From Heptranchias perlo (lineage: Eukaryota), in contig NC_090331.1 in NCBI RefSeq assembly GCF_035084215.1, forward strand, positions 74,400,001 to 74,464,000: a stretch of 64,000 nt of DNA. The letters run 5' to 3'. Each line of letters begins with the position of its first letter. Positions within the stretch are counted from its first letter, which is position 1. This document shows, in pieces, positions 1-57,619 of the stretch. The notes below the pieces were generated by a model. That model was not told the origin of the DNA. It was given only the letters and a program-made list of their open reading frames with translations, and did no database searches. A program made the translations under genes and the position numbers.

Positions 1-820
1 TGGTGCCCATCCCCCTGCCAAATTAGTTTAAACCCTCCCCCACAGCACTAGTTATCCCCCCCACTAGGCATTGGTCCCAGCTCTGTAGAGGTGCAATCCG
101 TCCATCTTGAACAGATCCCTCCTGCCCCAGAACTGGTCTCAATGCTCCAGGAATCTGAAGCCCTCCTCCAGCACCATTGCTCCAGCCACGTATTATCCTG
201 TCTTATCCTATTATTCCTATATTCGCTAGCGCGTGGCACTGGGAGTGATCCAGAGATTAAAAGATTACTACCTTTGATCTTTTAATTACTGCCTTTTAAT
301 TTCCTCCTTAGCTCTTGAAACTATGACTGCACAACTTCAATCTTTTTCCTTCCTATGTCATTGGTTCCCACATGGACCACGATTTCTGGCTGTTCCCCTT
401 CCCCCACTAAAAATGTTCTGCACCCTCTCCGTGATGTCCTTTACCCTGGTACCAGGGAGGCAATATACCATGCGGGACTCATGTCGGCCCATCTGCCCCC
501 ATGACTATTGAATCCCCTATAATCACTGCATTCTTACATTTCGCTGTGCCCCTCCCTGTGCAGTCCTTTGCCCCCATGGTGCCATGCTCCGGAATGCATT
601 CCTTTGCGGTGTCATCACCCTCAACGGTATTCAATACTGAAAACCGATTAGTGAGCGACACATTGCCGGAGGATTCCTGCACTGCCTGCCTCTTCCTACC
701 CTTCCCGATGGCCACCCACTTACTGTCCTGAGCTCTCTGTGGCTATGGGGACGACCACCTCCTGGAACGTACAATCCATGAAATTCTCAGCCTCCCATAT
801 GTCCTGCAGTGATTCCAGCG
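1..820 (-). mobile_element. CR1 LINE fragment: decayed ORF1 (SGNH esterase region) and ORF1/ORF2 junction
   Basis: ORFs 479-715 (QAVQES..LTNRFSVL..AVIIGDSIV) and 48-239 (PRASEYRN.RI.Q.N.WL..WC) match ORF1 at 17611-18561; ends GAG GGT TTA AAC TAA at about 38-23. Confidence 0.9.
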
Positions 821-16017: not shown

Positions 16018-16805
16018 TGGGTCTGCAAAGGGATATCGATGGGTTAAGTGAGTGGGCAAGAAGGTGGCAGATGGAGTATAATGTGGGGAAATGTGAGGTT
16101 TGGTAGGAAAAATTGAATATTTTTTAAATGGTGAGAAACTATTAAATCTTGGTGTCTAGAGAGACTTGGGTGTCCTGATACAAGAAACACAAAAAATTAG
16201 CATGCAGGTACAGCAGGAAATTAGGAAAGCAAATGGCATTTTGGCCTTTATTGAAAGGGGGTTGGAGCACAAGAGTAAGGAAGTCTTACTACAATTGTAC
16301 AGGGCTTTGGTGAGACATCACCTGAAGTACTGTGTACAGTTTTGGTCTCCTTATCTAAGGAAGGATACACTTGCCTTAGAGGTGGTGCATCGAAGGTTCA
16401 CTAGATTAATTCCTGGGATGAAAGGGTTGTCCAAGAGGAGAGGTTGAGTAGAATGGACCTATACTCTCGAGTTTAGAAGAAGGAGAGGTGATCTCATTGA
16501 AACATATAAGATTCTGAGGGGGCTTGACTGGGTAGGTGCTGTTAGGTTGTTTCCCCTGGCTGGAGAGTCTAGAACTAGAGGGCAAAGTCGCAGGATAAGG
16601 GGCCGGCCATTTAAGACTAAGATAAAGAAGAATTTCTTCACTCAGAGGTTTGTGAATCTTTGGAATTCTCTACCCCAGAGGGCTGAGTCGTTGAGTATAT
16701 TCAAGGCTGAGATAGATGTATTTTTGGACTCTGGGGAATCAAGGGATGTGGGGATCGGGCAGGAAAGACAAGTTGAGGTCGAAGATCAGCCATGATCTGA
16801 TTGAA
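16018..16805 (+). mobile_element. Older 5'-truncated CR1 acting as insertion host; its last ~60 bp lie at 21558-21620
   Basis: ORFs 16166-16447 and 16547-16795; the tail gatcagccatgatctgattgaa continues as tggcagagcaggctcgagggg..ttcttatgttctt after 21557. Confidence 0.92.
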
Positions 16806-17048
16806 GCACTCGGAGCGGAGCTACAGGCGGGAGCGGACCTAGGAGAGAGCGCGGGACTCGGAGACTACTAAAGGCCCAGGCTCGAGGGCCTACCCGCACT
16901 CGGAGCGGAGCTACAGGCGGGAGCGGACCTAGGAGAGAGCGCGGGACTCGGAGACTACTAAAGGCCCAGGCTCGAGGGCCTACCTGCACTCGGAGCGGAG
17001 CTACAGGCGGGAGCGGACCTAGGAGAGAGCGCGGGACTCGGAGACTAC
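16806..17048 (+). repeat. 90-bp CpG-rich tandem monomer array (about 2.7 copies) at the CR1 5' end
   Basis: Unit gcactcggagcggagctacaggcgggagcggacctaggagagagcgcgggactcggagactac.. starts at 16806, 16896 and 16986; copies nearly identical. Confidence 0.97.
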
Positions 17049-17074
17049 AGAGAGGCAATCGGTGAAAAAAACAA

Positions 17075-17610: not shown

Positions 17611-18561
17611 ATGTCAGGACAGCCCAGCCTCGTGTTATGCTCTTCCTGCTCTATGTGGGAAATCAGGGACCCTTCCGGTGTCCCTGACGACCATGTTTGC
17701 GGGAAATGTATCCAGCTGCAGCTACTGACAAACCGCATTGCGGCACTGGAGCTGCGGATGGATTCATTATGGAGCATTCGCGATGCTGAAAACGTCGTGG
17801 ATAGCACGTTTAGTGAGATGGTCACACCGCAGGTAAAGGTTGTACAGGCAGGAAGTAAGTGGGTGACCTCCAGGCAGAGTAAGAGGAGCAGGCAGGCAGT
17901 GCAGGGGTCCCCTGTGGCCGTCCCCCTCTCAAACAAATATACCGCTTTGGATATTGTTGAGGGGGATGACTTATCAGGGGAGGGCAGCAGCAGCCAACTT
18001 CCTGGCACCAGGGGTAGCTCTGCTGCACAGGCTGGGAGGAAAAAGAGTGGAAGAGCTATAGTGGTAGGGGATTCTATCGTAAGGGGAACAGACAGGCGTT
18101 TCTGTGGCCTTAAACGTGACTCCAGGATGGTTTGTTGCCTCCCTGGTGCCAGGGTCATGGATGTCACTGAGCGGCTTCAGGGCATTCTCAAGGGGGAGGG
18201 TGAGCAGGCAGAGGTCGTGGTCCACATTGGGACCAACGACATAGGTAGGAAGGGAGATGAGGTCCTGCATCAAGAATTTAGGGAGCTAGGTAGCAGATTA
18301 AAGAGCAGGACCTCAAAGGTTGTAATCTCTGGATTACTCCCAGTGCCACGGGCTAGTGAGTATAGAAATAGGAGGATAGAACAGATGAATGCGTGGCTAA
18401 AGAGTTGGTGCAGGAGGGAGGGTTTCAGTTTCCTGGATCACTGGGCCTGCTTCTGGGGAAGGTGGGACTTGTACAAGTCGGACGGGTTGCACCTGAACCA
18501 GAGCGGGACAAATATCCTTGCGGGGAGGTTTGCTAGCACTGTTGCGGGGGGTTTAAACTAA
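17611..18561 (+). CDS. CR1 ORF1p: zinc finger + leucine zipper + SGNH/GDSL esterase domain (316 aa, intact)
   Basis: CSSC..CGKC, heptad leucines (LLTNRIAALELRMDSL), SGNH blocks GDS, PGA, HIGTND and DGLHLN. Confidence 0.95.
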   Translation: MSGQPSLVLCSSCSMWEIRDPSGVPDDHVCGKCIQLQLLTNRIAALELRMDSLWSIRDAENVVDSTFSEMVTPQVKVVQAGSKWVTSRQSKRSRQAVQGSPVAVPLSNKYTALDIVEGDDLSGEGSSSQLPGTRGSSAAQAGRKKSGRAIVVGDSIVRGTDRRFCGLKRDSRMVCCLPGARVMDVTERLQGILKGEGEQAEVVVHIGTNDIGRKGDEVLHQEFRELGSRLKSRTSKVVISGLLPVPRASEYRNRRIEQMNAWLKSWCRREGFSFLDHWACFWGRWDLYKSDGLHLNQSGTNILAGRFASTVAGGLN

Positions 18562-21475
18562 CTTGGCAGGGGGATGGGATACAGAGTGGAGCTACAATAG
18601 GGGGTGATGTGCAGCCAAATATTGAGAAAAAAACAAGTCAGCTTGGAAGACAGGGCAAATATGTAAGAGCAAGGCTGGATGGCATCTATTTTAATGCAAG
18701 GAGTCTTGCAAATAAGGTGGATGAACTGAAGGTGTTGATAAACACATGGGAGTATGATATTGTTGCTGTCACAGAGACATGGTTGAGGGAGGGGCAAGAC
18801 TGGCAGCTCAATATTCCGGGGTACAGAATCTTCAGGCAAGACAGAGGGGGAGGTATAAGAGGAGGGGGGGTCGCAATATTAATTAAAGAATCAATTACTG
18901 CCATAAGGAGGGATGATATATTAGCAGGTTCCTCAAATGAGGCCATATGGGTGGAGCTTAAAAACAAAAAGGGGGCAAGCACTTTGATGGGAGTGTACTA
19001 TAGACCCCCAGTCAGGGGGAGATAGAGGAACAGATATGTAGGCAAATCTCAGAAAATTGTGCAAATAATAGGGTAATAATAGTGGGGGATTTCAACTTCC
19101 CCAATATTAACTGGGATACTCAGAGTGTAAAATGCTTAGAGGGTACAAAATTCTTAACGTGCATCCAGGAGAGCTTTTTGAGCCAGCATGTAGAAAGTCC
19201 TACAAGAGAGGGGGCGGTACTGGACCTAATTCTAGGGAATGTGGCCGGCCAAGTGGAAGAAGTGCTAGTAGGTGAGCACTTTGGTGACAGTGACCATAAT
19301 TCAGTGAGATTTAAGGTGGTCATGGAAAAGGACAGGGAGGGGCCGGAAATAAAGGTTCTAAATTGGGGGAAGGCCGATTTTAATAGGATAAGGCAGGATC
19401 TGGCCAAAATGGACTGGGATCAGCTGCTTGTAGGAAAATCCGCATCGGAGCAATGGGAGTCTTTCAGAAGGGAGATTGAGACCATACAATGGCAACATGT
19501 TCCCGTAAAGGTCAAGGGTAGTTCCAAGAACTCCAGGGAACCTTGGATGTCAGGGGATATACGAGAATGGATCAGGAAAAAAAGGAGGGCTTTTGGCAGA
19601 TACAAAAGGCTAAGGACGGAGGAAGCCCTAGAGGAGTACAAAAAGTGCAGGGGGATACTTAAAAAGGAAATTAGGAGATCAAGGAGGAGCCATGAAAAAA
19701 CACTGGCGAGCAAAATAAAGGAAAATCCTAAGATGTTTTATAAGTATATTAAGGGTAAGAGGATAACTAGGGAAAAAATAGGGCCCATTAGGGACAAAAA
19801 TGGCAATCTGTGTGTGGAGCCGGCAGATGTAGGAGGGGTTCTAAATGAATTTTTTGCATCTGTTTTCACTGTGGAGAAGGACGACGTAGACATAGAAATA
19901 CGGCAGGGGGACTGTGATATACTCGAACATATTAACATCGAGCGGGAGGAGGTATTGGCGGTTTTAGCATGCCTAAAAATGGATAAATCCCCAGGCCCGG
20001 ACGAAATGTATCCCAGGCTACTGTGTGAGGCAAAGGAGGAGATTGCGGGGGCTCTAACACATATATTCAGAACCTCTCTGGCCACAGGGGATGTGCCAGA
20101 GGACTGGAGAACCGCTAATGTAGTACCATTATTCAAGAAGGGGAGTAGGGAAAAACCGGGGAATTACCGGCCAGTGAGCCTAACATCAGTGGTAGGAAAA
20201 TTATTGGAAAAAATTCTGAAGGACAAAATTAGTCTCCACTTGGAGAAGCAAGGATTAATCAGGGATAGTCAACATGGCTTTGTCAAGGGAAGATCATGTC
20301 TGACAAATTTGATTGAATTTTTTGAGGGGGTGACTAGGCGTGTGGATGAGGGTAACGCAGTGGATGTGGTATACATGGATTTCAGTAAGGCCTTCGATAA
20401 AGTCCCGCACAGGAGACTGGTCAAGAAGGTACGAGCCCATGGAATCCAGGGTGCCTTGGCACTTTGGATACAAAACTGGCTTAGTGGCAGAAGGCAGAGG
20501 GTGATGGTCGAAGTTTGTTTTTGTGACTGGAAGCCTGTGGCCAGTGGGGTACCACAGGGATCTGTGCTGGGGCCCTTGCTGTTTGTGGTCTACATTAATG
20601 ACTTGGATATGAATGTAAAAGGTATGATCAGTAAGTTCGCTGATGATACAAAAATTGGTAGGGTGGTAAATAGCGAGGAGGATAGCCTCAGTCTGCAGGA
20701 CGATATAGATGGGTTGGTCAGATGGGCGGAACAGTGGCAAATGGAATTTAACCCGGAAAAGTGCGAGGTGATGCACTTTGGAGGGACTAACAAGGCAAGG
20801 GAATACACAATGAATGGGAAGACCCTTGGCAAGACAGAGGGTCAGAGGGATCTTGGTGTGCAAGTTCACAGATCCCTGAAGGCGGCGGAACAGGTAGATA
20901 AGGTGGTAAAGAAGGCATATGGGATACTAGCCTTTATTAGCCGAGGCATAGAATATAAGAGCAAGGAGGTTATGATGGAGCTGTATAAAACACTGGTTAG
21001 GCCACAGCTGGAGTACTGTGTGCTGTTCTGGTCGCCGCACTACAGGAAGGATGTGATCGCTTTGGAGAGGGTGCAGAGGAGATTCACCAGGATGTTACCA
21101 GGGCTGGAGCGCTTCAGCTATGAAGAGAGAGTGGGAAGATTGGGTTTGTTTTCCTTGGAGCAGAGGAGGCTGAGGGGGGACATGATTGAGGTGTACAAAA
21201 TTATGAGGGGCATAGATAGGATGGATACTAAGGAGCTTTTTCCCTTCGTTGAGTGTTCTATAACAAGGGGGCATAGATTGAAGGTAAAAGGCGGGAGTTT
21301 TAGAGGGGATTTGAGAAAGAACTTTTTCACCCAGAGGGTGGTTGGAGTCTGGAACTCACTGCGTGAAAGGGTTGTGGAGGCAGGAACCCTCACAACATTC
21401 AAGAAGCATTTGGATGAGCACTTGAAATGCCATAGCATACAAGGCTACGGACCAAATGCTGGAATATGGGAGTAG
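18552..21475 (+). CDS. CR1 ORF2p (APE endonuclease + reverse transcriptase), one frameshift near 19010; no AUG start (see findings)
   Basis: Endonuclease motifs NARS, TETW, GGV, YRPP, GDFN, LDL, SDH; RT motifs YRPVSLTS, DFSKAFDKV, GVPQGSVLGP, FADD; ORF track segments 18609-19025 and 19082-21475. Confidence 0.93.
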
Positions 21476-24683: not shown

Positions 24684-26005
24684 AACTCAGAGTTTGATGT
24701 ACACAGGGAAACTCAGAGCTGGGAGTTTGATGTACACAGGGAAACTCAGAGCTGGGAGTTTGATGTACACAGGGTAACTCAGAGCTGGGAGTTTGATGTA
24801 CACAGGGTAACTCAGAGCTGGGAGTTTGATGTACACAGGGTAACTCAGAGCTGGGAGTTTGATGTACACAGGGTAACTCAGAGCTGGGAGTTTGATGTAT
24901 CATAGTAGCTACAGCACAAGTGGAGGCCATTCAGCCCATCGTGCCTGTGTCGGCTCTTTGAAAGAGCTATTCAATTAATCCCATTCCCCTGCTCTGTCCC
25001 CATAGTCCTGTAATATTTTTCCCTTCAAATAGTTATCCAATGCCCTTTTGAAAGTTACTATTGAATCTGCTTCCACCACCCGTTCAGGCAGTGTATTCCA
25101 GATCATTACAACTCGCTGCGTAAAAAAATATTTCCTCATGTCGCCTCTGGTTCTTTTGCCGATCAACTTAAATCTGTGTCCTCTGGTTACCGATCCTTCT
25201 GCCACTGCAAACAATTTCTCCTTATTTACTCTGTCAAAAGCCGTCAGGATTTTGAACACCTCTAACAAATTTCCCCTTAACCTTCTTTGTTCAAAGGTGA
25301 ACAACCCCAGCTTCTCCAGTCTCTCCACATAACTGAAGACCCTCATCCCTGGTACCATTCTCGTAAATCTCTTCTGCACCCTCTCTAAGGCCTTGACATC
25401 CTTCCTGGAGCGTGGTGCCCAGAATTGAACACAATGTTCCAGCTGCGGCCTAAGAAGTGCTTTATAAAGGTTTAGTATAACTTCCTTGGCTTTTGTACTC
25501 TATGCCTCTATTAATAAAGCCCAGGATCAATTATGCTATTTCAACAGCCTTCTCAACCTGTCCAGCCACCTTCAAAGATTTGTGTGTATGCACCCCCAGG
25601 TCTCTCTGTTCCAAGGCTATTAAAAAAGCATATGGGATCTTGGGCTTTATTAATAGAGGCATAAAGTAAAAAAGCAAAGAAGTTATGCTAAACCTTTAGA
25701 AAACACTGGTTAAGCCTCAGCTGGAGTGTTGTGTTCAATTCTGAGCACCACACTTTAGGAAGGATGTCAAGGCCATAGAGAGGGTGCAGTAGAGATTTAC
25801 TAGAATGGTGCCAGCGTACACAGGGTAACTCAGAACTGGGGGTTTAAGGGACACAGGAGATCTAAATTTGTGTTTGTGTTGTACACAGGGTAACTCCGAA
25901 CAGGGATTTTGATATACACAGTTTAACAGCAGAGCTGAGAGTTTGATGTACACCACAGGGTAACTCAGAGCTGGGTGTTTGATGTACACAAGGTAACAGC
26001 AGAGC
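24684..26005 (+). repeat. 33-bp minisatellite split by a CR1 insertion (homogeneous part 24684-24899, degenerate part 25816-26005)
   Basis: Unit gggtaactcagagctgggagtttgatgtacaca, about 6.5 contiguous copies. Confidence 0.95.
24901..25815 (-). mobile_element. CR1 3' fragment (minus, 24901-25612) fused to an oppositely oriented CR1 piece (plus, 25612-25815)
   Basis: ORF 24975-25379 (QKRFTRMVPG..TRGHRFK..FFTQRVV); the plus piece repeats the KAYGILGFI..FTRMVP segment. Confidence 0.9.
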
Positions 26006-48534: not shown

Positions 48535-48714
48535 CTCTGTTTCCTATTACTTAGCCAATTTTGTATCCATGCTGCCACTGCCCACTTTGTTCCATGGGCT
48601 TCAACTTTGACGACAAGCATATTATGAGGCACTTTATCAAATGCATTTTGGGAGTCCACATACACCACATCAACCACATTACCCTCATCGACCATTTCTG
48701 TTACCTCATCAAAA

Positions 48715-51442
48715 CGTAGAAACATAGAAAATAGCAGCAGGAGTAGGCCATTCGGCCCTTCGAGCCTGCTCCGCCTTTCAATATGATTATGGCTGATCCT
48801 CTATCTCAATACCATATTCCCGCTCACTCCCCATACCCCTTGATGCCTTTTGTGTCTAGAAATCTATCTAACTCCTTCTTAAATATACTCAGTGACTTGG
48901 CCTCCACAGCCTTCTGTGGTAGAGAATTCCAAAGGTTCACCACCCTCTGAGTGAAGAAATTTCTCCTCATCTCAGTCCTAAATGTCCTACCCCATATCCT
49001 GAGACTGTAACCCCTCATTCTGGACCCCCCAGCCAGGGGAAACATCCTCCCTGCATCCAGTCTGTCTAGCCCTGTCAGAATTTTATATGTTTCAATGAGA
49101 TCCCCTCTCATTCTTCTGAACTCAAGTGAATACAGGCCGAGTCGACCCAATCTCTCCTCATACAACAGTCTTGCCATCCCAGGAATCAGTCTGGTGAACC
49201 TTCGCTGCACTCCCTCTCTGGCAAGTATATCCTTTCTTAGGTAAGGAGACCTAAACTGCACACAATACTCCAGGTGTGATCTCACCAATAACTGTAGTAA
49301 GACATCCTTGCTCCTGTACTCAAATCCTCTTGCAATGAAGGCCAACATACCATTTGCCTTCCTAACTGCTTTCTGCACCTGCATGTTTGCTTTCAGTGAC
49401 TGGTGTACAAGGACATCCAGGTCCCTTTGTAAATCAACGTTTCCCAATCCATCACCATTTAAATAACACTTTGCCTTTCTGTTTTTCCTTCCGAAGTGGA
49501 TAACTTCACATTTATCCACATTATATTGCATCTTCCATGTATTTGCCCACTCACTCAACTTGTCTAAATCGCCTTGAAGCCTCTTTGCATCCTCCTCACA
49601 ACTCACGATCCCACCTAGTTTTGTGTCGTCAGCAAACTTGGAAATATTACATTTGGTTCCCTCATCCAAATCATTGATATATATTGTGAATAGCTGGGGC
49701 CCAAGCGCTGATCCCTGTGGTACCCCACTTGTCACCGCCTGCCACCCCGAAAAAGACCCATTTATTCCTACTCTCTGTTTCCTGTCTGTTAACCAATTTT
49801 CAATCCATGCCATTATATTACCCACAATCCCACGTGCTTTCATTTTGCACACGAACCAATTTCCTGTTTGATTCTATCCCCTACATTACCATTACTGTTT
49901 GGAGGCCTATAGACAACTCCCACCAGTGTTTTCTGCCCCTTGGTGCTTCTTAACTCCACCCAGACTGATTCTACACCTTGATTTTCTGAGCCAATATCCT
50001 TTCTCACTGTTGCTCTGATTTCATCCTTTACTAACAATGCCACCCCACCTCCTTTTCCTTTTTGCCTGTCCTTCCTAAATATCGAATATCTTTGGATATT
50101 CAGCTCCCAGCCTTGGTCATCCTGCAGCCATGTCTCTGTAATTGCAATTATATCATATCCGTTTACATCTATTTGCGCTGTTAATTCATCTACTTTATTA
50201 CGAATGCTTCGTGCATTCAGATACAGTGCCTTTAGATTTGTCTTTTTAACATTTTTAGACATCTTAACATTTTTTGTACTATGGCCCTATTTGTCTTATT
50301 ACCATTTTTTCTTACCCGGACCCTATTTGTCAGTGCACTCTTTTGTTTGTACTCTCTGACACAATCTGGATATCCTTACCCCAATCACTTTCCGACACTG
50401 CTTCTTTGTCTTTTCTCTTTAGCATTCTCGACTTCTCTCCACTGGGACCCTCACCCCACTTATTTAGTTTAAAGCCCTATCTACCTCCCTAGTTATTCGA
50501 TTCGCTAGAACTCTGGTCCCAGCATGGTTCAGGTGTAGTCTGACCCAATGGAACAGCTCTCTCTTTCCCCAGTACTGGTGCCAGTGCCCCATGAATCGAA
50601 ACCCACCTCTCCCACACCAATCTTTGAGCCACGCATTCATCTCCCTGATCCTATTGACCCTATGCCAATTTGCTTGTGGCTCAGATAATAATCCAGAGAT
50701 TATTACCTTTGTGGTTCTGCTTTTTAATTTAGTCGCCAGCTGCTCAAACTCTCTCAGCAGAACCTTTTTTTTTAGTCCTACCTATGTCGTTGGTACCTAC
50801 ATGGACCACGACAACTGGATCCTCCCCCTCCCACTCCAAATTCTTCTCCAGCCCAGAGGAGATGTCCTTAACCCTGGCATCGGGTTGGCAACATAGCCTT
50901 CGGAACTCATGCTCCTGGCTTCAGAGAACAGTGTCTATCCCCCTAACTATACTGACGCCTACTACAAACATCTTCCTTTTTACTCCCCCCATTTGAACGG
51001 CTTCCTGTACCACGGTGCCGTGGTCAGTTTGCTCGTCCTCCCCGCAGTCCCCGCACTTGTCAACAATGGTTGCAAGAACCTCAAATCAACTGGACAAGCG
51101 CAGGGACTGAGGCTCCTGCAATACTACCTCCTGGATCTCCGTACTTGTCTCGTTCGCAGTCACACCCTCCTGTCCCTGACCTCGTGTCAATTCTAAAGTA
51201 TTTAATCTAAGGGGTGTGACTGCCTCCTGGAGCAAAAGGTCCAGGTCGCTTTCTCCCTCCCTGATATCTCGCAATATCTGCAGCTCGGACTCCAGCTCCT
51301 CAACTCGGAGCCGAAGTTCCTTGAGCCACTTACTGCAGATGTAGTCGCCATGGACAAAAATGTCCGCAAGCTGCCACATATTGCAGCAGCAACACATCTC
51401 CTGTTCTCCCATTTTATTTATTTAATTTATTAATTTAGTGTT
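48715..51442 (-). mobile_element. CR1 LINE with ORF1, endonuclease N-terminus, a large internal deletion near 49850 and the RT C-terminal half
   Basis: ORFs 51086-51412 (CCCCNMW..CSK zinc finger), 49840-50262 (NARS, TETW, YRPPNS) and 48824-49852 (PQG, FADD); tail acgtagaaacatagaaa. Confidence 0.93.
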
Positions 51443-52931
51443 AAAAACTCAATCAAGTTAGTTAGACACGATTTACCTTTAACAAATCCATGCTAGCTAT
51501 CCTTTATTAATCCACACTTTTCCAAGTAACTGTTAATTTTGTCCTGGATTATCATTTCTAAAAGTTTCCCCACTATCGAGGTTAAACTGACTTGCCTGTA
51601 GTTGCTGGGTTTATCCTGACACCCTTTTTTGAACAAGGGTGTAACATTTGCAATTCTGCAGTCCTCTGGCACCTCCCCCATATCTAAGGATGATTGGAAG
51701 ATTATGACCAGTACCTCCGTAATTACCACTCTTGCTTTCCTCAGCAACCTAGGATGCATCCCATCTGGACCGGGTGACTTAACTACTTTAAGTACAGCCA
51801 GCCTTTCTAATACCTCCTCTTTATCAATTTTTAGCCCATCCAGTATCTCAACTACCTCTTCACTTACTGTGATTTTGGCAGCATCTTCGTACTTGATAAA
51901 GACAGATGCAAAGTACTCATTTAGTACCTCGGCCATGCCCTCTGCCTCCATGCGTAGATCTCTATATTGGTCCCTAATTGGTCCCACCCCTCCTCTTACT
52001 ACCCATTTCCATGCCTATAGAAGACTTTTGGATTCCCTTTTATATTTGCCGCCAGTCTATTCTCATGTATATGCCCCTCTTATTTCCTTTTTCACCTCCC
52101 CTCTGAACTTTCTATATTCTGCCTGGTTCTCACTTGTATTATCAAGCTGACATCTGTCGTATGGTCCTTTTTTCAGCTTCATCTTACTCTCTACCTCTTT
52201 TGTCATCCAGGGAGCTCTGGTTTTAGTTGCGCTATGTTTCTCCCTCGTGGGAATGTGCCTAGACTGTACCCAAACCATCTCCTCCTTAAAGGCCCCCCAT
52301 TGTTCAATTACAGTTTTGCCTGCCAATCTTTGGTTCCGATTTACCCGGGCCAGATCCGTTCTCATCCTATTGAAATTGGCCCTCCTCCAATTGAGTATTT
52401 TTACTTTAGAGTGGTCCTTGTCTGTTTCCATAGCTAATCTAAACCTTATGATACTATGATCGCTGTTCCCTAAATGTTCCCCTCCTGACACTTGCTCCAT
52501 TTGGCCCATCACATTTCCCAGAACCAGATCCAGCAATGCCTCCTTCCTCGTTGGGCCTGAAACATACTGGTCAAGAAAGTTCTCCTGAACACACTTCAGA
52601 AATTCCTCCCCCTCTTTGCTCTTTACACTATTACTATCCCAGTCTACATTAGGATAGTTGAAGTCCCCCAATATCACTTCTCTATTGTTCTTGCACATTT
52701 CTGTAATTTCCCTGCAAATTTGCCCCTCTATCTTCTTCCCACTAGTTGGTGGCCTGTGGAATACACCCTGTAGTGTAATGGCACTTCTATTGTTTCTTAA
52801 CTATAACCAAATAGATTCTGTCCTTGACCCCTCCAGGACATCCTCTCTCTCCAGCACTGCAATATTCTCCTTGATCAATACTGCCACACCCCCCCTTCTT
52901 TCTTCCTTCCCCTATCTTTCCTGAACACCTT

Positions 52932-55222
52932 GGGCTCTATTTCGCACCTGCGATCGGGTGCGTTCGTGGCGGGGGGGGCTGCGAAAATCCGGGATTCCCG
53001 GGGCGGGTCCAGAACCCGGCTCCAACCCGCCCCATTTCTGGGTTTCCCAGTGATGCGCTCACATGTGCGCGCGGCCCCCGCACGTGGGACTCCCGCCAGC
53101 AATTAAAGCCGGCGGGGTGCCACTTAAAGTACTTATACAGGTTGTTTACAGACCTGATTGACCTGATATTTTAGGAGGGATGGGATTTTGCAACTGACTG
53201 AGACTGTTTCCCGTACTGGGGGAAACGCTCCCAGTTGAAATGGACGTGTTGCAGCCATCAGCCTGTGGCAGCTGCAAATGTCCATGTGACAGTTCGGGGG
53301 GGAGACCCTCACTCATTGCAGGAGGCCACTCTGTCACTTTGGACAAAGTTTGGCCTCCACCACCCTCCTCCTCAAATGCATAACCTTGCACACTTACCCC
53401 GGTGTCCAGACGTGGCAGGAGTGGTGATAATAATAATATTTATTGTGCATGTGAAATAAAACAAATATAAATGAAAAACATGACAAATCGTCAGACACCC
53501 TTGTGCATTCCCTTTGTGCTCACAAAACCTTCGCCTTGCGTTTCTGGGAACCCCTACGTGGTGCTACCCCTGTGGCTGCAGCAGAGGTAGTGGCAGGTTG
53601 CTCTTGTTCATGCCCTGACCGATGAGATGCTTTGGACCGACGCCCTCTGGGTTTCGGTGCCCGTGAGGGCCCCTCCAAAGACTGCTCCACCTGCACCTGT
53701 GCAGGGGCAGACTCGACCACCTGGAGAGGGGGCAACATTACGGGTACTGGTTGAAAGGGGGGCAACGGGTGAGACGTGGGAGCGCTTTGAGTGGCGTCCC
53801 CACTTCCATGTCCCCTTTCACCATCATCCCTCTCGTGGCCCAGGCCCACATCACTCCTTCCACCCTGCTGGACGGCAGTTTGGAGGACTTGTCTGAGGCT
53901 TTGGAAAGCCACCTGTAAAGTATCTGTCAGCCTGTTTAAGGCGGCAGAATGTTGCTCACCCTGACTCACCATGTGCAAGCCTAACTACGTGAGGACGGGG
54001 ACCCACCGAGGTGTGTGTATCTGCGCTGGTGGATGGATGGCTCGGATGTGACGATGGACCCTCAGAGACCGGCAGGTCCTCTGAGGAATCGCCCTCCACG
54101 GTCACGGCACTCGCAGATGGCCCTGCAAGAGAACAGAAAGCAATATTAGGCATGTGGACAGATGTTGAGGTGCTGCAGATGCCAAGTGATGCTAAGATCA
54201 TTCGCTGTCATGAGTGCTGAGTTTTAGTTTTCTGTCACCGGCCGCTTGTGCAATCCCAGCCTCGGCATCTGCCAGGGACAGGCACTCCAGCGTGTGGCTG
54301 ATGTCCAATGCCTGCTGCTCCGTGTCCGTTAGGACCACCTGGTGTGGCGGGCCCCCTCCGGTCCATGCCCTCTCCCGGGCGTTCTGGCATCTCTTCTCCT
54401 ATCAAGGCAAAACACAGAGGTGTGATTGAGTGATGGTTGCATGGTGAGCCGCTGCATGCATTGGTGTGGGTGGGGTTGAGCGTGAGGGAGATGCATGGGA
54501 GGGTGCGTGTGTAACATAGCCATGATATTGTATGAGGATTGGGTTGCGTGGTAGTGTTCGAATGGGAACTGGGGCGGTGAGTACGTGCAGGCAAGGTGAG
54601 GATGATAGTTGAGTGGATGTGAGGAGTGATGCGAGAGCGTTGTGGAGGCAGTGCAGAAGGGGTTGTGTGGTGGTGGAGGTGATGTGGAAGACGGAGTGTG
54701 GGAGAATGCGTAAGTATACTCACTTTGCCTAACCTGGTTAGATCATTAAATCTCTTCCTGCACTGGACCCAGGTTCGTGGCACATTGCTGCAGCTGGTGA
54801 CCTCCTCGGCCACCTCCAGCCAGGCCTTCTTCTTGATGGAGGGAGGGCAATTCCTCCCATCAGACGGGAAAAATATTTCCCTCCTCCTCCTCACCCCATC
54901 CAGCAGCAGCTGGAGTGAGGAGTCTGAAATTCTTGGGGCAGCCTTCCCTCTGGCGTGCTCCATGGTTTAGCATTGGTTGTTTGCTGCGGGAGGAGCATTG
55001 GTGGACTGCCCCTTTAAATAGGGCTCCTCCGGCTGACAGACCTTGCTGCGCTTGCGCAGTCCGCCCGCTGCGCAGCTTACCAGCGGGAAACCCGGAAGCA
55101 AAGGTAAGTGGCTCCAATTAGCCTGTAATTGCGTGCGGAGCACACTGATTTCATCGGGCGCGTTACCCACGCGCCCAGTTGACCCCCTGCTGAGAACCCG
55201 CCGCCCTGCTAATATTGAGCCC
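52932..55222 (-). mobile_element. Non-autonomous PIF/Harbinger transposon (2291 bp) with 3-bp TSD CTT
   Basis: Termini gggctctatttc / aatattgagccc; CTT at 52929-52931 and 55223-55225; removal restores the CR1 text cctgaacaccttgtatcc. Confidence 0.92.
53520..54963 (-). pseudogene. Harbinger Myb/SANT-like (NAIF1/MSANTD-type) DNA-binding gene: exons 54963-54724, 54398-54239 and from 54122; frame break near 53965
   Basis: APRISDSSLQLLLDGV..RR..AWLEVAEEV..RTWVQCRKRFNDL; phase-compatible GT-AG introns give EKRCQNARERAWTGGGPP in exon 2. Confidence 0.85.
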
Positions 55223-57619
55223 CTTGTATCCAAGGATATTTAGTACCCAATCCTGCCCTTTTTTGAGCCAGGTCTCCGTTATCGTCACTACATCATATTC
55301 GCATGTGGCTAATTGGGCCTGCAGCTCACTAACCTTGTTTACTACATTACTGCATGCATTTACATACATGCACTTTAAATCTATCTTAGACCTTCTTGTA
55401 TTCTCTCTTAGTCTGATCCCACCTAATACCATACTATTTCTTACTCTAGCGCTATCAATCTCTCCCAATCCTTTGTGCACCTTGTTTCTCCTTTCCAATG
55501 CTACATCCTGATGCCCAACTCCCTGCCAAATTAACTTAAACCCTCCCCCACAGAACCAGCGAACCTCCCTGCAAGGACATTGGTCCCAGCTCTGTGCAGG
55601 TGCAACCTGTCCGGCTTGTACTGGTCCCAATGCCCCAGGAATCTCAAGCCCTCCATCTCGCCAGCCATACAGTTATCTGTGCTACCCTTCTACTTCTATA
55701 CTCATTAGCCCGTGCCACCAGATGTAATCCGGAGATGACTACATTTGTGTTTCTGCTTATTAATCTCTTTCCTAACTCCCTAAACACTTCCTGCAGGACC
55801 CCATCCCTCTTTCTACCTATGTCTTTGGTACCAATATGGACCATGACCTCTGTTCACCCTCCCCCTTCAGAATGTTTTGTAGCCACTCAATGACATCCTT
55901 GACCCTGGCACCAGACAGGCAACACACCATCCTGGAATCACATCTGCGGCTGCAGAAGCACCTGTCTGTTCCCCTAACTATTGAATCTCCTATCACTTTT
56001 GCTCTCCTGACCTTTCTCCTTCTCCCTGTACAGCTAACCCTAACCCTGATGAAATAATTGCAGTGCTTAATGTGGTAATGAGCCAAATAGACCCAAAAGG
56101 CCTCAGGTTCAAAGGCTGAGCTGTACTGAGTTAACTTTTTAAAAAATTCATTCTCGGGACGTGGGTGTTGCTGGCAACGCCGGCATTTATTGCCTATCCC
56201 AAGTTGCCCTTGAATAGGTGGTGGTGGGCCTTCTTCTTGAACTGCCGCAGTCTGTGCAGTAGGAAGTTCCAGGATTTTGATTCAGCGACAATGAAGGAAC
56301 GGCGATATATATCCAACTCAGGATGGTGTGTGACTTAGAGGGGACTGAAAATATCAGTCAGGGTTTCCACTCCTTATCATCAACTAGTGACCTCTATTAG
56401 AAACTGTGCCCGACCGTGAGGTGAGTACGGGACGTACCAAGGTCAAACAGCCTGCCAATATTCACTGCCAGGCATCAGTCTTGAAGAATTTCCACTTAGG
56501 TGAAGTACTAAAGGACTGCCAGCACCTGTAGAACAGGACACCAGAATAAATCAGTACTTTCAAGGACAGCAGAAGAGAAAATTGGAAATGGGGGAGTGAG
56601 AAAGAGAGCTGCTCTATAACCGATGGTCAATAGTACATGCTCCGGGATTGACTGATCCTCTGGTTTCTCTTCCGTCTCTATCAGCTTTACTCAGCATCTT
56701 GGATGATTTTTGAGATTGTTGCCTTGCTCTATGGGGAATCATAGGTGTGAGCTCAAATAAGCCTTACAACAGCTTCCATTATTGGCTAGCAAAATAATAA
56801 ACACAGGTAACTCACTAAGCAAAACAGCTCACACAACTTGCATTTATTTTCTGCATGTAAATGATAATTTTATCTTGTAAACTGCTGATAATTCACATAT
56901 CAACATTTAAAAGAGCTCAAATATGTGATTTACTTGTTTAATTTTCTCCCCTCCTCTCCTGAAGAACTGATTTGTACTGGATATGGTTTCATGGGGCATT
57001 AGCTGGTCTCTGACTCAGTGGCGATTCTTTATGTATGAGTCCAGACACTAAGGCAGGATTTTCAATTGCATTTCTGTTGGGTTTGCAGCAATACTAGGGT
57101 AGATTATTGGGTCAAGACCTGTGTAGGCCTTAGTTGAGCCCAAGGTTAAAATGGCTTGCGCGTCCCAATGACATAATCAGGATGTGACTCTGCTATTTAA
57201 ATTAGGTCCTGCTCCTCTGGAGCAGGCGGCCATCCCTGAATTCAGGCAGCTACAAATGGTGTGGGCGAGAACTCGGCCGGAATGCGGCACGCACCTCCCC
57301 TGCCATCTTATATTTCCCGCCCGTACCATTCCCACCGGGCGGGGGTTTAAAATCGGCCCTGATATGTTAATGTCGTCCTGATCACATTATTTAAGTATTC
57401 ATGTAACTCTCTGATGTTCCTGCACGCCTAACTCCACCCATATAACTAGGGAATGAATTATATACAGAAGTTCATTTAAATACCTCAGTAAGAGGATTCT
57501 TTGCTCATTGTTTGGTCCATTTCTCAACCACTTTACTTATTTCCTTTTGCTGCTGTCACTTAGGTGTTTGGGAGTCTTTGTTCCAATTGTTGTGGCACGG
57601 CTATTTTTTCTGAATAGCT

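Follow-up and report, generated by a model that had tools for sequence, protein, structure and literature searches.

The window, that is, the whole 64-kb stretch of DNA analyzed here, is rich in CR1-type LINE fragments. One of them, a decayed CR1 LINE copy on the minus strand (48713–51442, ends approximate; hereafter the 50.4-kb copy), consists of ORF1, a linker, an endonuclease fragment, an internal deletion, the 3′ part of the reverse transcriptase and a short tandem tail. ORF1, pieced together from open reading frames (50464–51412, minus strand), contains N-terminal Cys motifs, a coiled-coil-like region and a C-terminal SGNH/GDSL esterase, and its last 105 amino acids match PF13472 (E = 3.5e-4). 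ORF1 is broken by frameshifts in this copy, and its tblastn match to the ORF1 of the CR1 copy near 18.5 kb is spread over two frames. ORF2 begins with the N-terminal half of an APE endonuclease (49860–50286, minus strand; PF03372, E = 1.4e-7) that has an ATG at 50262, nine codons upstream of the endonuclease first strand. The internal deletion joins this half to the 3′ part of the reverse transcriptase and the end of ORF2 (48824–49873, minus strand; PF00078, E = 1.5e-14). The 3′ tail, read by eye, shows short tandem TTTCTATG-type repeats near 48735–48716 and no poly(A). On the basis of these domains and the tail, we assign the 50.4-kb element to the CR1 LINEs with an esterase ORF1.

Homologues of this ORF1 occur in chondrichthyans, amphibians, reptiles and birds, and the closest ones are found in sharks and rays (70% identity to a Pristiophorus protein), on which basis the DNA is treated as elasmobranch. 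In the ORF1 tree, the 50.4-kb element groups with Callorhinchus and Hemitrygon proteins (support 100/99) and is separated from the clade of the 18.5-kb element (98/98), which agrees with the divergent CR1 subfamily claimed in a preliminary description of this DNA. The same description called the sequence around the two ORF1 ends very different. This is partly correct: identity between the ORF1s amounts to 44% over 141 amino acids and 67% over 473 nt, and the DNA alignment of the two copies stops approximately 50 nt short of the motif discussed below. The 50.4-kb copy is itself inserted into the reverse transcriptase of an older CR1, whose reading (...LTNLIEF / FDEVTEMVDEG...) resumes beyond the insertion at a T-run. 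The older host, with ORF1 near 56.0–55.5 kb and a reverse transcriptase that resumes at 48713, carries two insertions, a DNA transposon and the 50.4-kb CR1, generating a three-level nest at 48535–56040 on the minus strand.

On the minus strand, ORF1 of the 50.4-kb copy ends with GAT AGG GCT TTA AAC TAA (peptide EVDRALN). The slippery heptamer reported earlier at this end is present: T TTA AAC occupies 50467–50473 in the X_XXY_YYZ register with ORF1, and the ORF1 stop codon TAA (50464–50466) follows it directly. The bases 3′ of the TAA (ata agt gggg tga ggg) contain a G-run, GGGG at 50457–50454 and then GGG, that begins 9 nt past the heptamer and extends over 50448–50457 as a candidate 3′ stimulator. 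The −1 frame that starts at the heptamer (FKLNKWGEG...; 50330–50473, minus strand) is closed on its upstream side by a TAG one codon before the heptamer and, as described earlier, runs for 47 codons to a TGA at 50332–50330 with an internal ATG, codon 17 of the frame, at 50425–50423. Past the heptamer, the 0 frame closes after 14 codons and the +1 frame after 0. A homologue search with the 47-residue −1 peptide returned no matches.

TTTAAAC by itself occurs 25 times on the two strands of the window. Followed by TAA or TAG, it occurs only three times, each time at a CR1 ORF1 end (18552 on the plus strand; 50473 and 32 on the minus strand). The window holds four CR1 ORF1 ends in total, two of which, at 32 and 55540 on the minus strand, were absent from the preliminary description. 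The junction of the 18.5-kb copy (18552–18573, plus strand) and that at the window edge (11–32, minus strand) both read GGT TTA AAC TAA with GGGGG 10 nt further on. In the 18.5-kb copy, the −1 frame is open for 157 codons and its first Met is codon 146. The fourth junction (55520–55540, minus strand) reads GGT TTA AGT TAA, in which the heptamer is altered to TTTAAGT, and the −1 frame of this copy remains open for 125 codons, into the endonuclease.

Relatives of these elements were collected from metagenome contigs. The scan yielded 56 loci, of which 24 contain the junction; in 27 nothing matched the C-terminal profile of ORF1, and the other 5 stop short of the junction. Together with the four copies in the window, the 24 loci form a set of 28 junctions, and the 32 other loci were left out. 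The scan of prokaryote genomes gave one locus (L057) in a bacterial assembly, which matched weakly (28%) and was excluded from all counts, and the viral contigs scanned gave no loci. The collected loci divide into reptile-like and bird-like groups, a group that is 86–88% like Ridgeia proteins, and L011, which forms a long branch of its own. The 28 junctions represent approximately seven lineages, many of them bird-like, and are related by descent, so the counts below are not independent observations.

TTTAAAC is present in 23 of the 28 junctions, and the remaining five read GTTAAAC, TTTAAAT, TTTCAAC, TTTACGA and TTTAAGT. The next codon is TAG in 17 junctions, TAA in 5, TGA in 1 and a sense codon in 5. 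Since the first tally picked the best motif match near the projected position, it was repeated without use of the motif; TTTAAAC was then found at 14 of 15 junctions projected exactly from the profile and at 14 of 18 junctions defined by the first in-frame stop codon. Among the relatives whose −1 frame stays free of stops over 500 codons (L001, L003, L007, L011 and L018), four carry TTTAAAC and one GTTAAAC. The latter is found in L011 (680–689), where G_TTA_AAC precedes two TAG codons, the G-run lies 7 nt past the heptamer and ORF2 is intact over 976 codons. A G_UU(A) form is a natural variant in equine arteritis virus, according to the accessible part of PMC5009743.

What is the constraint that maintains this motif at the end of ORF1? 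The preliminary description held that it acts on the nucleotide motif and not just on the peptide, and a tabulation of codon choice at the 28 junctions, in which the synonymous sites are fixed, bears this out. The junction Leu is encoded by TTA in 27 of 27 cases, compared with 34 of 291 Leu codons (12%) elsewhere in the same ORF1s, and the junction Asn by AAC in 25 of 26 cases, compared with a background of 37 of 92. The codon before Leu ends in T in 27 of 28 junctions (background 25%), even though eight different codons for seven amino acids (A, G, C, Y, S, H and T) are used there. In a competing explanation, L-N is required at the C-terminus of ORF1p, and the apparent fixation of its codons reflects kinship. 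L-N is indeed invariant in alignment A1, and many loci belong to one bird-like clade. However, TTA is found in every lineage from shark to annelid-like, and elsewhere in these sequences the conserved columns of Leu, Asn, Phe, Cys and Gly show a mixture of synonymous codons; in four such Leu columns, four to five codons each occur, with a top share of 0.44–0.62. The mixed columns largely refute a peptide constraint combined with shared ancestry, and we regard this explanation as scarcely credible.

The C-termini of ORF1 proteins provide a further view of the junction. We found an x-L-N terminus in 58 of 95 homologues (from sharks, rays, frogs, lizards, a turtle and a parrot), in 93 of 120 annelid-like ORF1 proteins and in 72 of 114 representatives of 50% clusters; the last were required to reach the end of a C-terminal profile from which the final three residues had been omitted. 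L-N sits 3, 9 or 16 residues beyond the esterase profile. Because its distance past the profile varies, L-N tracks the stop codon rather than the fold, which also speaks against a peptide requirement, as does the finding that related esterases end with G-N or K-N. Among the other 42 representatives, nine end with G-N (seven of them Q-G-N) and two with K-N. U_UUA_AAC, G_GGA_AAC and A_AAA_AAC are listed among the most shift-prone heptamers in the accessible part of PMC5009743, and the G-N and K-N endings would fit G_GGA_AAC and A_AAA_AAC, a prediction made from the proteins. Such Q-G-N, S/A-G-N or x-K-N ends are found in P0292, P0301, P0305, P0312, P0326, P0329, P0334, P0340, P0354, P0337 and P0346, and a few distant esterase ORF1-like proteins end with S-N or E-N. 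The residues E, K, Q, M or W precede L-N in only 1 of 72 representatives, a weak signal taken alone, given that positions −7 and −10 yield 4 of 72 and 3 of 72. Two database proteins (P0037 and P0072) run from ORF1 straight into F-K-L and onward, as is expected of copies with an upstream indel.

The position of ORF2 relative to ORF1 in the relatives is the second line of evidence. Consistent with the frame relation on which the preliminary description had staked its proposal, 16 of the 22 copies that have an endonuclease match carry the endonuclease in the −1 frame with no stop in between. In these 16 copies, stop-free −1 linkers of 32–89 codons connect the heptamer to the endonuclease, whereas the other two frames of the linkers have a stop rate of 7.4% per codon, or approximately one stop per 14 codons. 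In the remaining six copies, the first endonuclease piece lies in the 0 frame (three copies) or the +1 frame (three copies); in one of them (L019), the −1 frame reaches the first endonuclease motif before it breaks. Upstream of the heptamer, the open stretch of the −1 frame has a median length of 2.5 codons, and it contains an ATG in none of the 28 junctions. Because the upstream −1 frame is short and lacks an ATG, the ORF2 frame begins at the heptamer.

Termination at the ORF1 stop codon followed by re-initiation is described for L1 and SART1. In CR1, ribosomes could likewise terminate and re-initiate at a nearby AUG or non-AUG codon, and the role of the motif would be to modulate termination or to retain the small subunit. 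The main support for this route comes from start codons: an ATG lies two bases past the ORF1 stop codon in 6 of 28 junctions, and 11 of the 16 open copies contain an in-frame ATG upstream of the first endonuclease motif. Furthermore, the 50.4-kb copy has ATGs at 50425 and 50262, and the constant spacing of the G-run could signal a non-AUG start. The in-frame ATGs, however, are scattered from codon 4 to codon 90. A search for a conserved start codon near the ORF1 stop codon in the 28 junctions found ATG at codon 5 in only the six mentioned above and in none of the shark and annelid-like copies; codon 5 is otherwise TCG, GTG, TGG or another codon, and no start position is conserved. Moreover, 5 of the 16 open copies have no Met before the first endonuclease motif, including the 18.5-kb copy and L018, whose ORF2 is intact over 976 codons. 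Re-initiation also leaves unexplained why synonymous sites in the seven-base motif before the stop codon are fixed and why the −1 frame lacks stops from the heptamer onward. We therefore judge it unlikely. The ATG two bases past the ORF1 stop codon in the ORF2 frame is a feature of some of the bird-like junctions (L001, L002, L003, L006, L007 and L038), where it may represent a second, stop-start route or a drift of the GTG/TCG codon. A search of the PDB with the L018 endonuclease gave no match.

In the 50.4-kb copy itself, the endonuclease lies in the 0 frame, not in the −1 frame. Three-frame translation reveals that the sole open frame of its linker shifts from −1 to +1 (50235–50375, minus strand, a segment open only in the +1 frame that overlaps both break points) and then to the endonuclease frame. 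Both breaks coincide with length variation in sister copies, which were compared over 49850–51450 using contigs of 4 of the 21 listed public runs, from three samples. The first break (50352–50356, minus strand) is marked by extra bases in sister copies, inserted behind 50352, 50353 and 50355, and the contig depth there is approximately 7,300 compared with 90,000–100,000 on either side (run X2). In most sister copies, TAA stands in place of the TGA at 50332, which puts the first break upstream of this codon. At the second break (50269–50270, minus strand), many sister copies have one extra base in an A-run; the extra base behind 50269 is found in 38, 24, 12 and 1 contigs of the four runs, corresponding to approximately 36%, 30%, 3% and 89% of depth. 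Judging from lengths and gap counts, contigs that span both breaks contain 11 inserted letters in two of three cases and 12 in one, along with deletions. The net length differences are +10, +7 and +9 for the bridging contigs and +18 for a fourth contig that spans one break, and none of these values alone gives the 2 mod 3 required for −1 continuity. Among the sister-copy substitutions, none of the 40 of 458 that are listed falls at 50467–50473. Taken together, the linker sequences tentatively suggest a −1 frame for the 50.4-kb subfamily, and the 50.4-kb copy is a dead copy that retains the signal. The linker also contains two 11-nt direct repeats within 50244–50331 on the minus strand (50331/50295 and 50274/50256), which may have arisen as the linker grew through duplication of local sequence.

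In addition to the heptamer and the stop codon, the junction has a conserved 3′ element. G occupies positions 18, 19, 20 and 21, counted from the heptamer start, in 26 of 27, 27 of 27, 25 of 27 and 23 of 26 junctions, respectively. The first G-run starts 10 nt past the heptamer in 22 of 26 junctions, 9 nt past it in two, and 7 and 17 nt past it in one each. The G-run encodes Gly in the −1 frame, and GGG accounts for 22 of the 24 Gly codons there, compared with 63 of 236 in ORF2. Other candidate stimulators were searched for at the junction. A conserved 3′ hairpin was not found in a search confined to pseudoknot-free folds (mean z score of +0.19, with 1 of 24 below −2), no long-range pairing partner exceeded shuffled controls, and Rfam gave no match at the junction. 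G-quadruplex formation was rejected as a general explanation; a two-tier pattern is present in 14 of 28 junctions and forms part of the minimum-energy fold in 5 of 24, and both the 50.4-kb copy and the annelid-like group lack it. A pause at the stop codon and the unpaired G-run 10 nt downstream are the putative stimulators.

The failure to find a structural stimulator would also suit an RNA or DNA signal with a role other than frameshifting, such as the binding of ORF1p, ORF2p or a host factor, splicing or processing, in which case the open −1 frame would be a by-product. The TAG forms resemble a 3′ splice acceptor and TTTAAA is palindromic. However, the motif holds its codon register with ORF1 and always adjoins the stop codon, and stop-free −1 linkers of varied length need translation to be maintained. 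The splice-site version was rejected, given that the shark copies carry TAA and not AG. A signal of this other kind is highly improbable in our assessment.

We propose that esterase-type CR1 LINEs very probably use −1 programmed ribosomal frameshifting to produce an ORF1–ORF2 fusion. The proposal builds on features seen in the sequences themselves, namely the motif, its register, the fixation of its synonymous sites, the −1 frame relation in the relatives and the lack of a conserved AUG. The slip itself and the fusion product we infer from these features. Most ribosomes would read x-Leu-Asn, stop and release ORF1p. A minority would slip one base back on U_UUA_AAC, with tRNA-Leu moving from UUA to UUU and tRNA-Asn from AAC to AAA. 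Slipped ribosomes would bypass the adjacent stop codon and continue through the variable linker to translate the endonuclease and reverse transcriptase. This would yield an ORF1p–ORF2p fusion, which in the 50.4-kb subfamily would read ...R-A-L-N-L-N-K-W-G-E-G... across the junction. Standing against frameshifting are the 6 of 22 copies outside the −1 frame, the 5 of 28 heptamers that differ, the 11 of 16 open copies with an in-frame AUG and the lack of a conserved hairpin. The signal is common to the CR1s of shark, bird- and reptile-like and annelid-like relatives.

A more specific version of this model can be offered as speculation, and we hold it to be rather doubtful as a whole. CR1 would perform a gag-pol-like −1 shift without an RNA fold: the stop codon would pause the ribosome, and the G-run, lying exactly 10 nt downstream and occupied by either a host G-tract protein or ORF1p, would drive the slip and set the ORF1p:ORF2p ratio. 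The signal would be shared with annelid-like elements, and other esterase retroelements would swap among the three viral heptamers.

Viral U_UUA_AAC sites, such as those of IBV and other coronaviruses, have the same heptamer and the same register as CR1, and retroviral gag-pol resembles CR1 in that a structural-type protein is followed by a polymerase with a −1 shift close to where the first ORF ends, as far as the accessible part of PMC5009743 describes them. Unlike these viral sites, the CR1 site belongs to a non-LTR retrotransposon, its stop codon is the very next codon and no conserved stem-loop was detected. Another likeness is to PRRSV nsp2, where −2/−1 frameshifting occurs with no obvious RNA structure and the motif is separated by a spacer of 10 nt in the wild type, with 9–11 nt being functional (PMC4937337, accessible text). 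The PRRSV motif is C-rich and bound by nsp1beta and PCBP according to that text, whereas the candidate in CR1 is a G-run. The likeness, an unstructured conserved motif with the same 10-nt spacer, is offered as an analogy only.

Among non-LTR retrotransposons, the Dictyostelium elements TRE5-A and TRE3-A of the L1 clade are said in the accessible part of PMC5911963 to require a −1 frameshift for their APE-RT ORF2. They differ from CR1 in clade and ORF1, and the CR1s, vertebrate as well as annelid-like, have a conserved canonical heptamer. For Paramecium LINEs, +1 shifting, re-initiation or read-through has been proposed (PMC5405496, accessible text). The ZfL2-1 esterase (PDB 4C1B) is homologous to CR1 ORF1 (E = 1.2e-40), and its crystallized construct reaches just two residues beyond the profile match. 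ORF2 of ZfL2-1 is reportedly translated via suppression of the ORF1 stop codon, a result attributed to Kajikawa et al. in 2012. Such read-through stays in one frame, whereas CR1 would shift by −1; either would give a fusion. Like CR1, ZfL2-1, a zebrafish element of the L2 clade, has an SGNH esterase ORF1 before APE-RT (PMC3905857), and neither "frameshift" nor "slippery" occurs in the accessible text of that paper.

A CR1 subgroup with a type IVB esterase ORF1, of the same family and domain layout as the elements studied here, is described in the accessible parts of PMC4120745 and PMC13343379. The main texts of both papers contain neither "frameshift" nor "overlap", and that of PMC13343379, a 2026 survey of the CR1 group, does not contain "slippery" either; the route by which ORF2 is translated is not discussed in the accessible text of either paper. 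A link between CR1 and a frameshift site was not found in the accessible portions of the open-access literature, including PMC2734521, PMC2612034, PMC4255032 and PMC5408684. PMC11835228 holds both terms in its accessible text, where frameshift refers to retroviruses, and "CR1" does not occur in the first 300,000 of the 449,034 characters of PMC5009743. There is nonetheless a fair chance, somewhat short of even, that the site has been remarked on somewhere already.

The proposed mechanism is a known one, here in a new form that is conserved across a retrotransposon family of major importance in vertebrates. According to the accessible text of PMC13343379, elements of the CR1 group predominate among the retrotransposons of most vertebrate species and account for 22–34% of elasmobranch genomes. 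If our proposal is correct, ORF2p would be produced joined to the esterase ORF1p and in a fixed proportion to it, like retroviral Gag-Pol and unlike L1, and an ORF2 annotated from its first AUG would lose the endonuclease first strand in several lineages. The signal would be approximately 25 nt long and, if the G-run is the stimulator, would constitute a natural structure-free frameshift signal outside viruses.

Several minor observations were made alongside the junction analysis. Two database ORF1 proteins, P0008 (64% identical to the shark element and labeled as a Pseudomonas aeruginosa SGNH hydrolase) and P0073 (frog-like and labeled Protopolystoma), look like host contamination of assemblies. 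In the window, a unit of approximately 70 nt is repeated in tandem at 16786–17050, upstream of the 18.5-kb ORF1, and is probably its 5′ UTR repeat. A 33-nt tandem repeat at 24750–24905 on the plus strand appears as repeated QSWEFDVHRVT in the ORF translation. The DNA transposon of the three-level nest (52932–55222, minus strand), which we take to be PIF/Harbinger-like, lies inside the endonuclease of the 55.5-kb CR1 and has short imperfect TIRs, a 3-bp AAG target duplication and a Myb/SANT ORF at 54235–54966 (PF13873).
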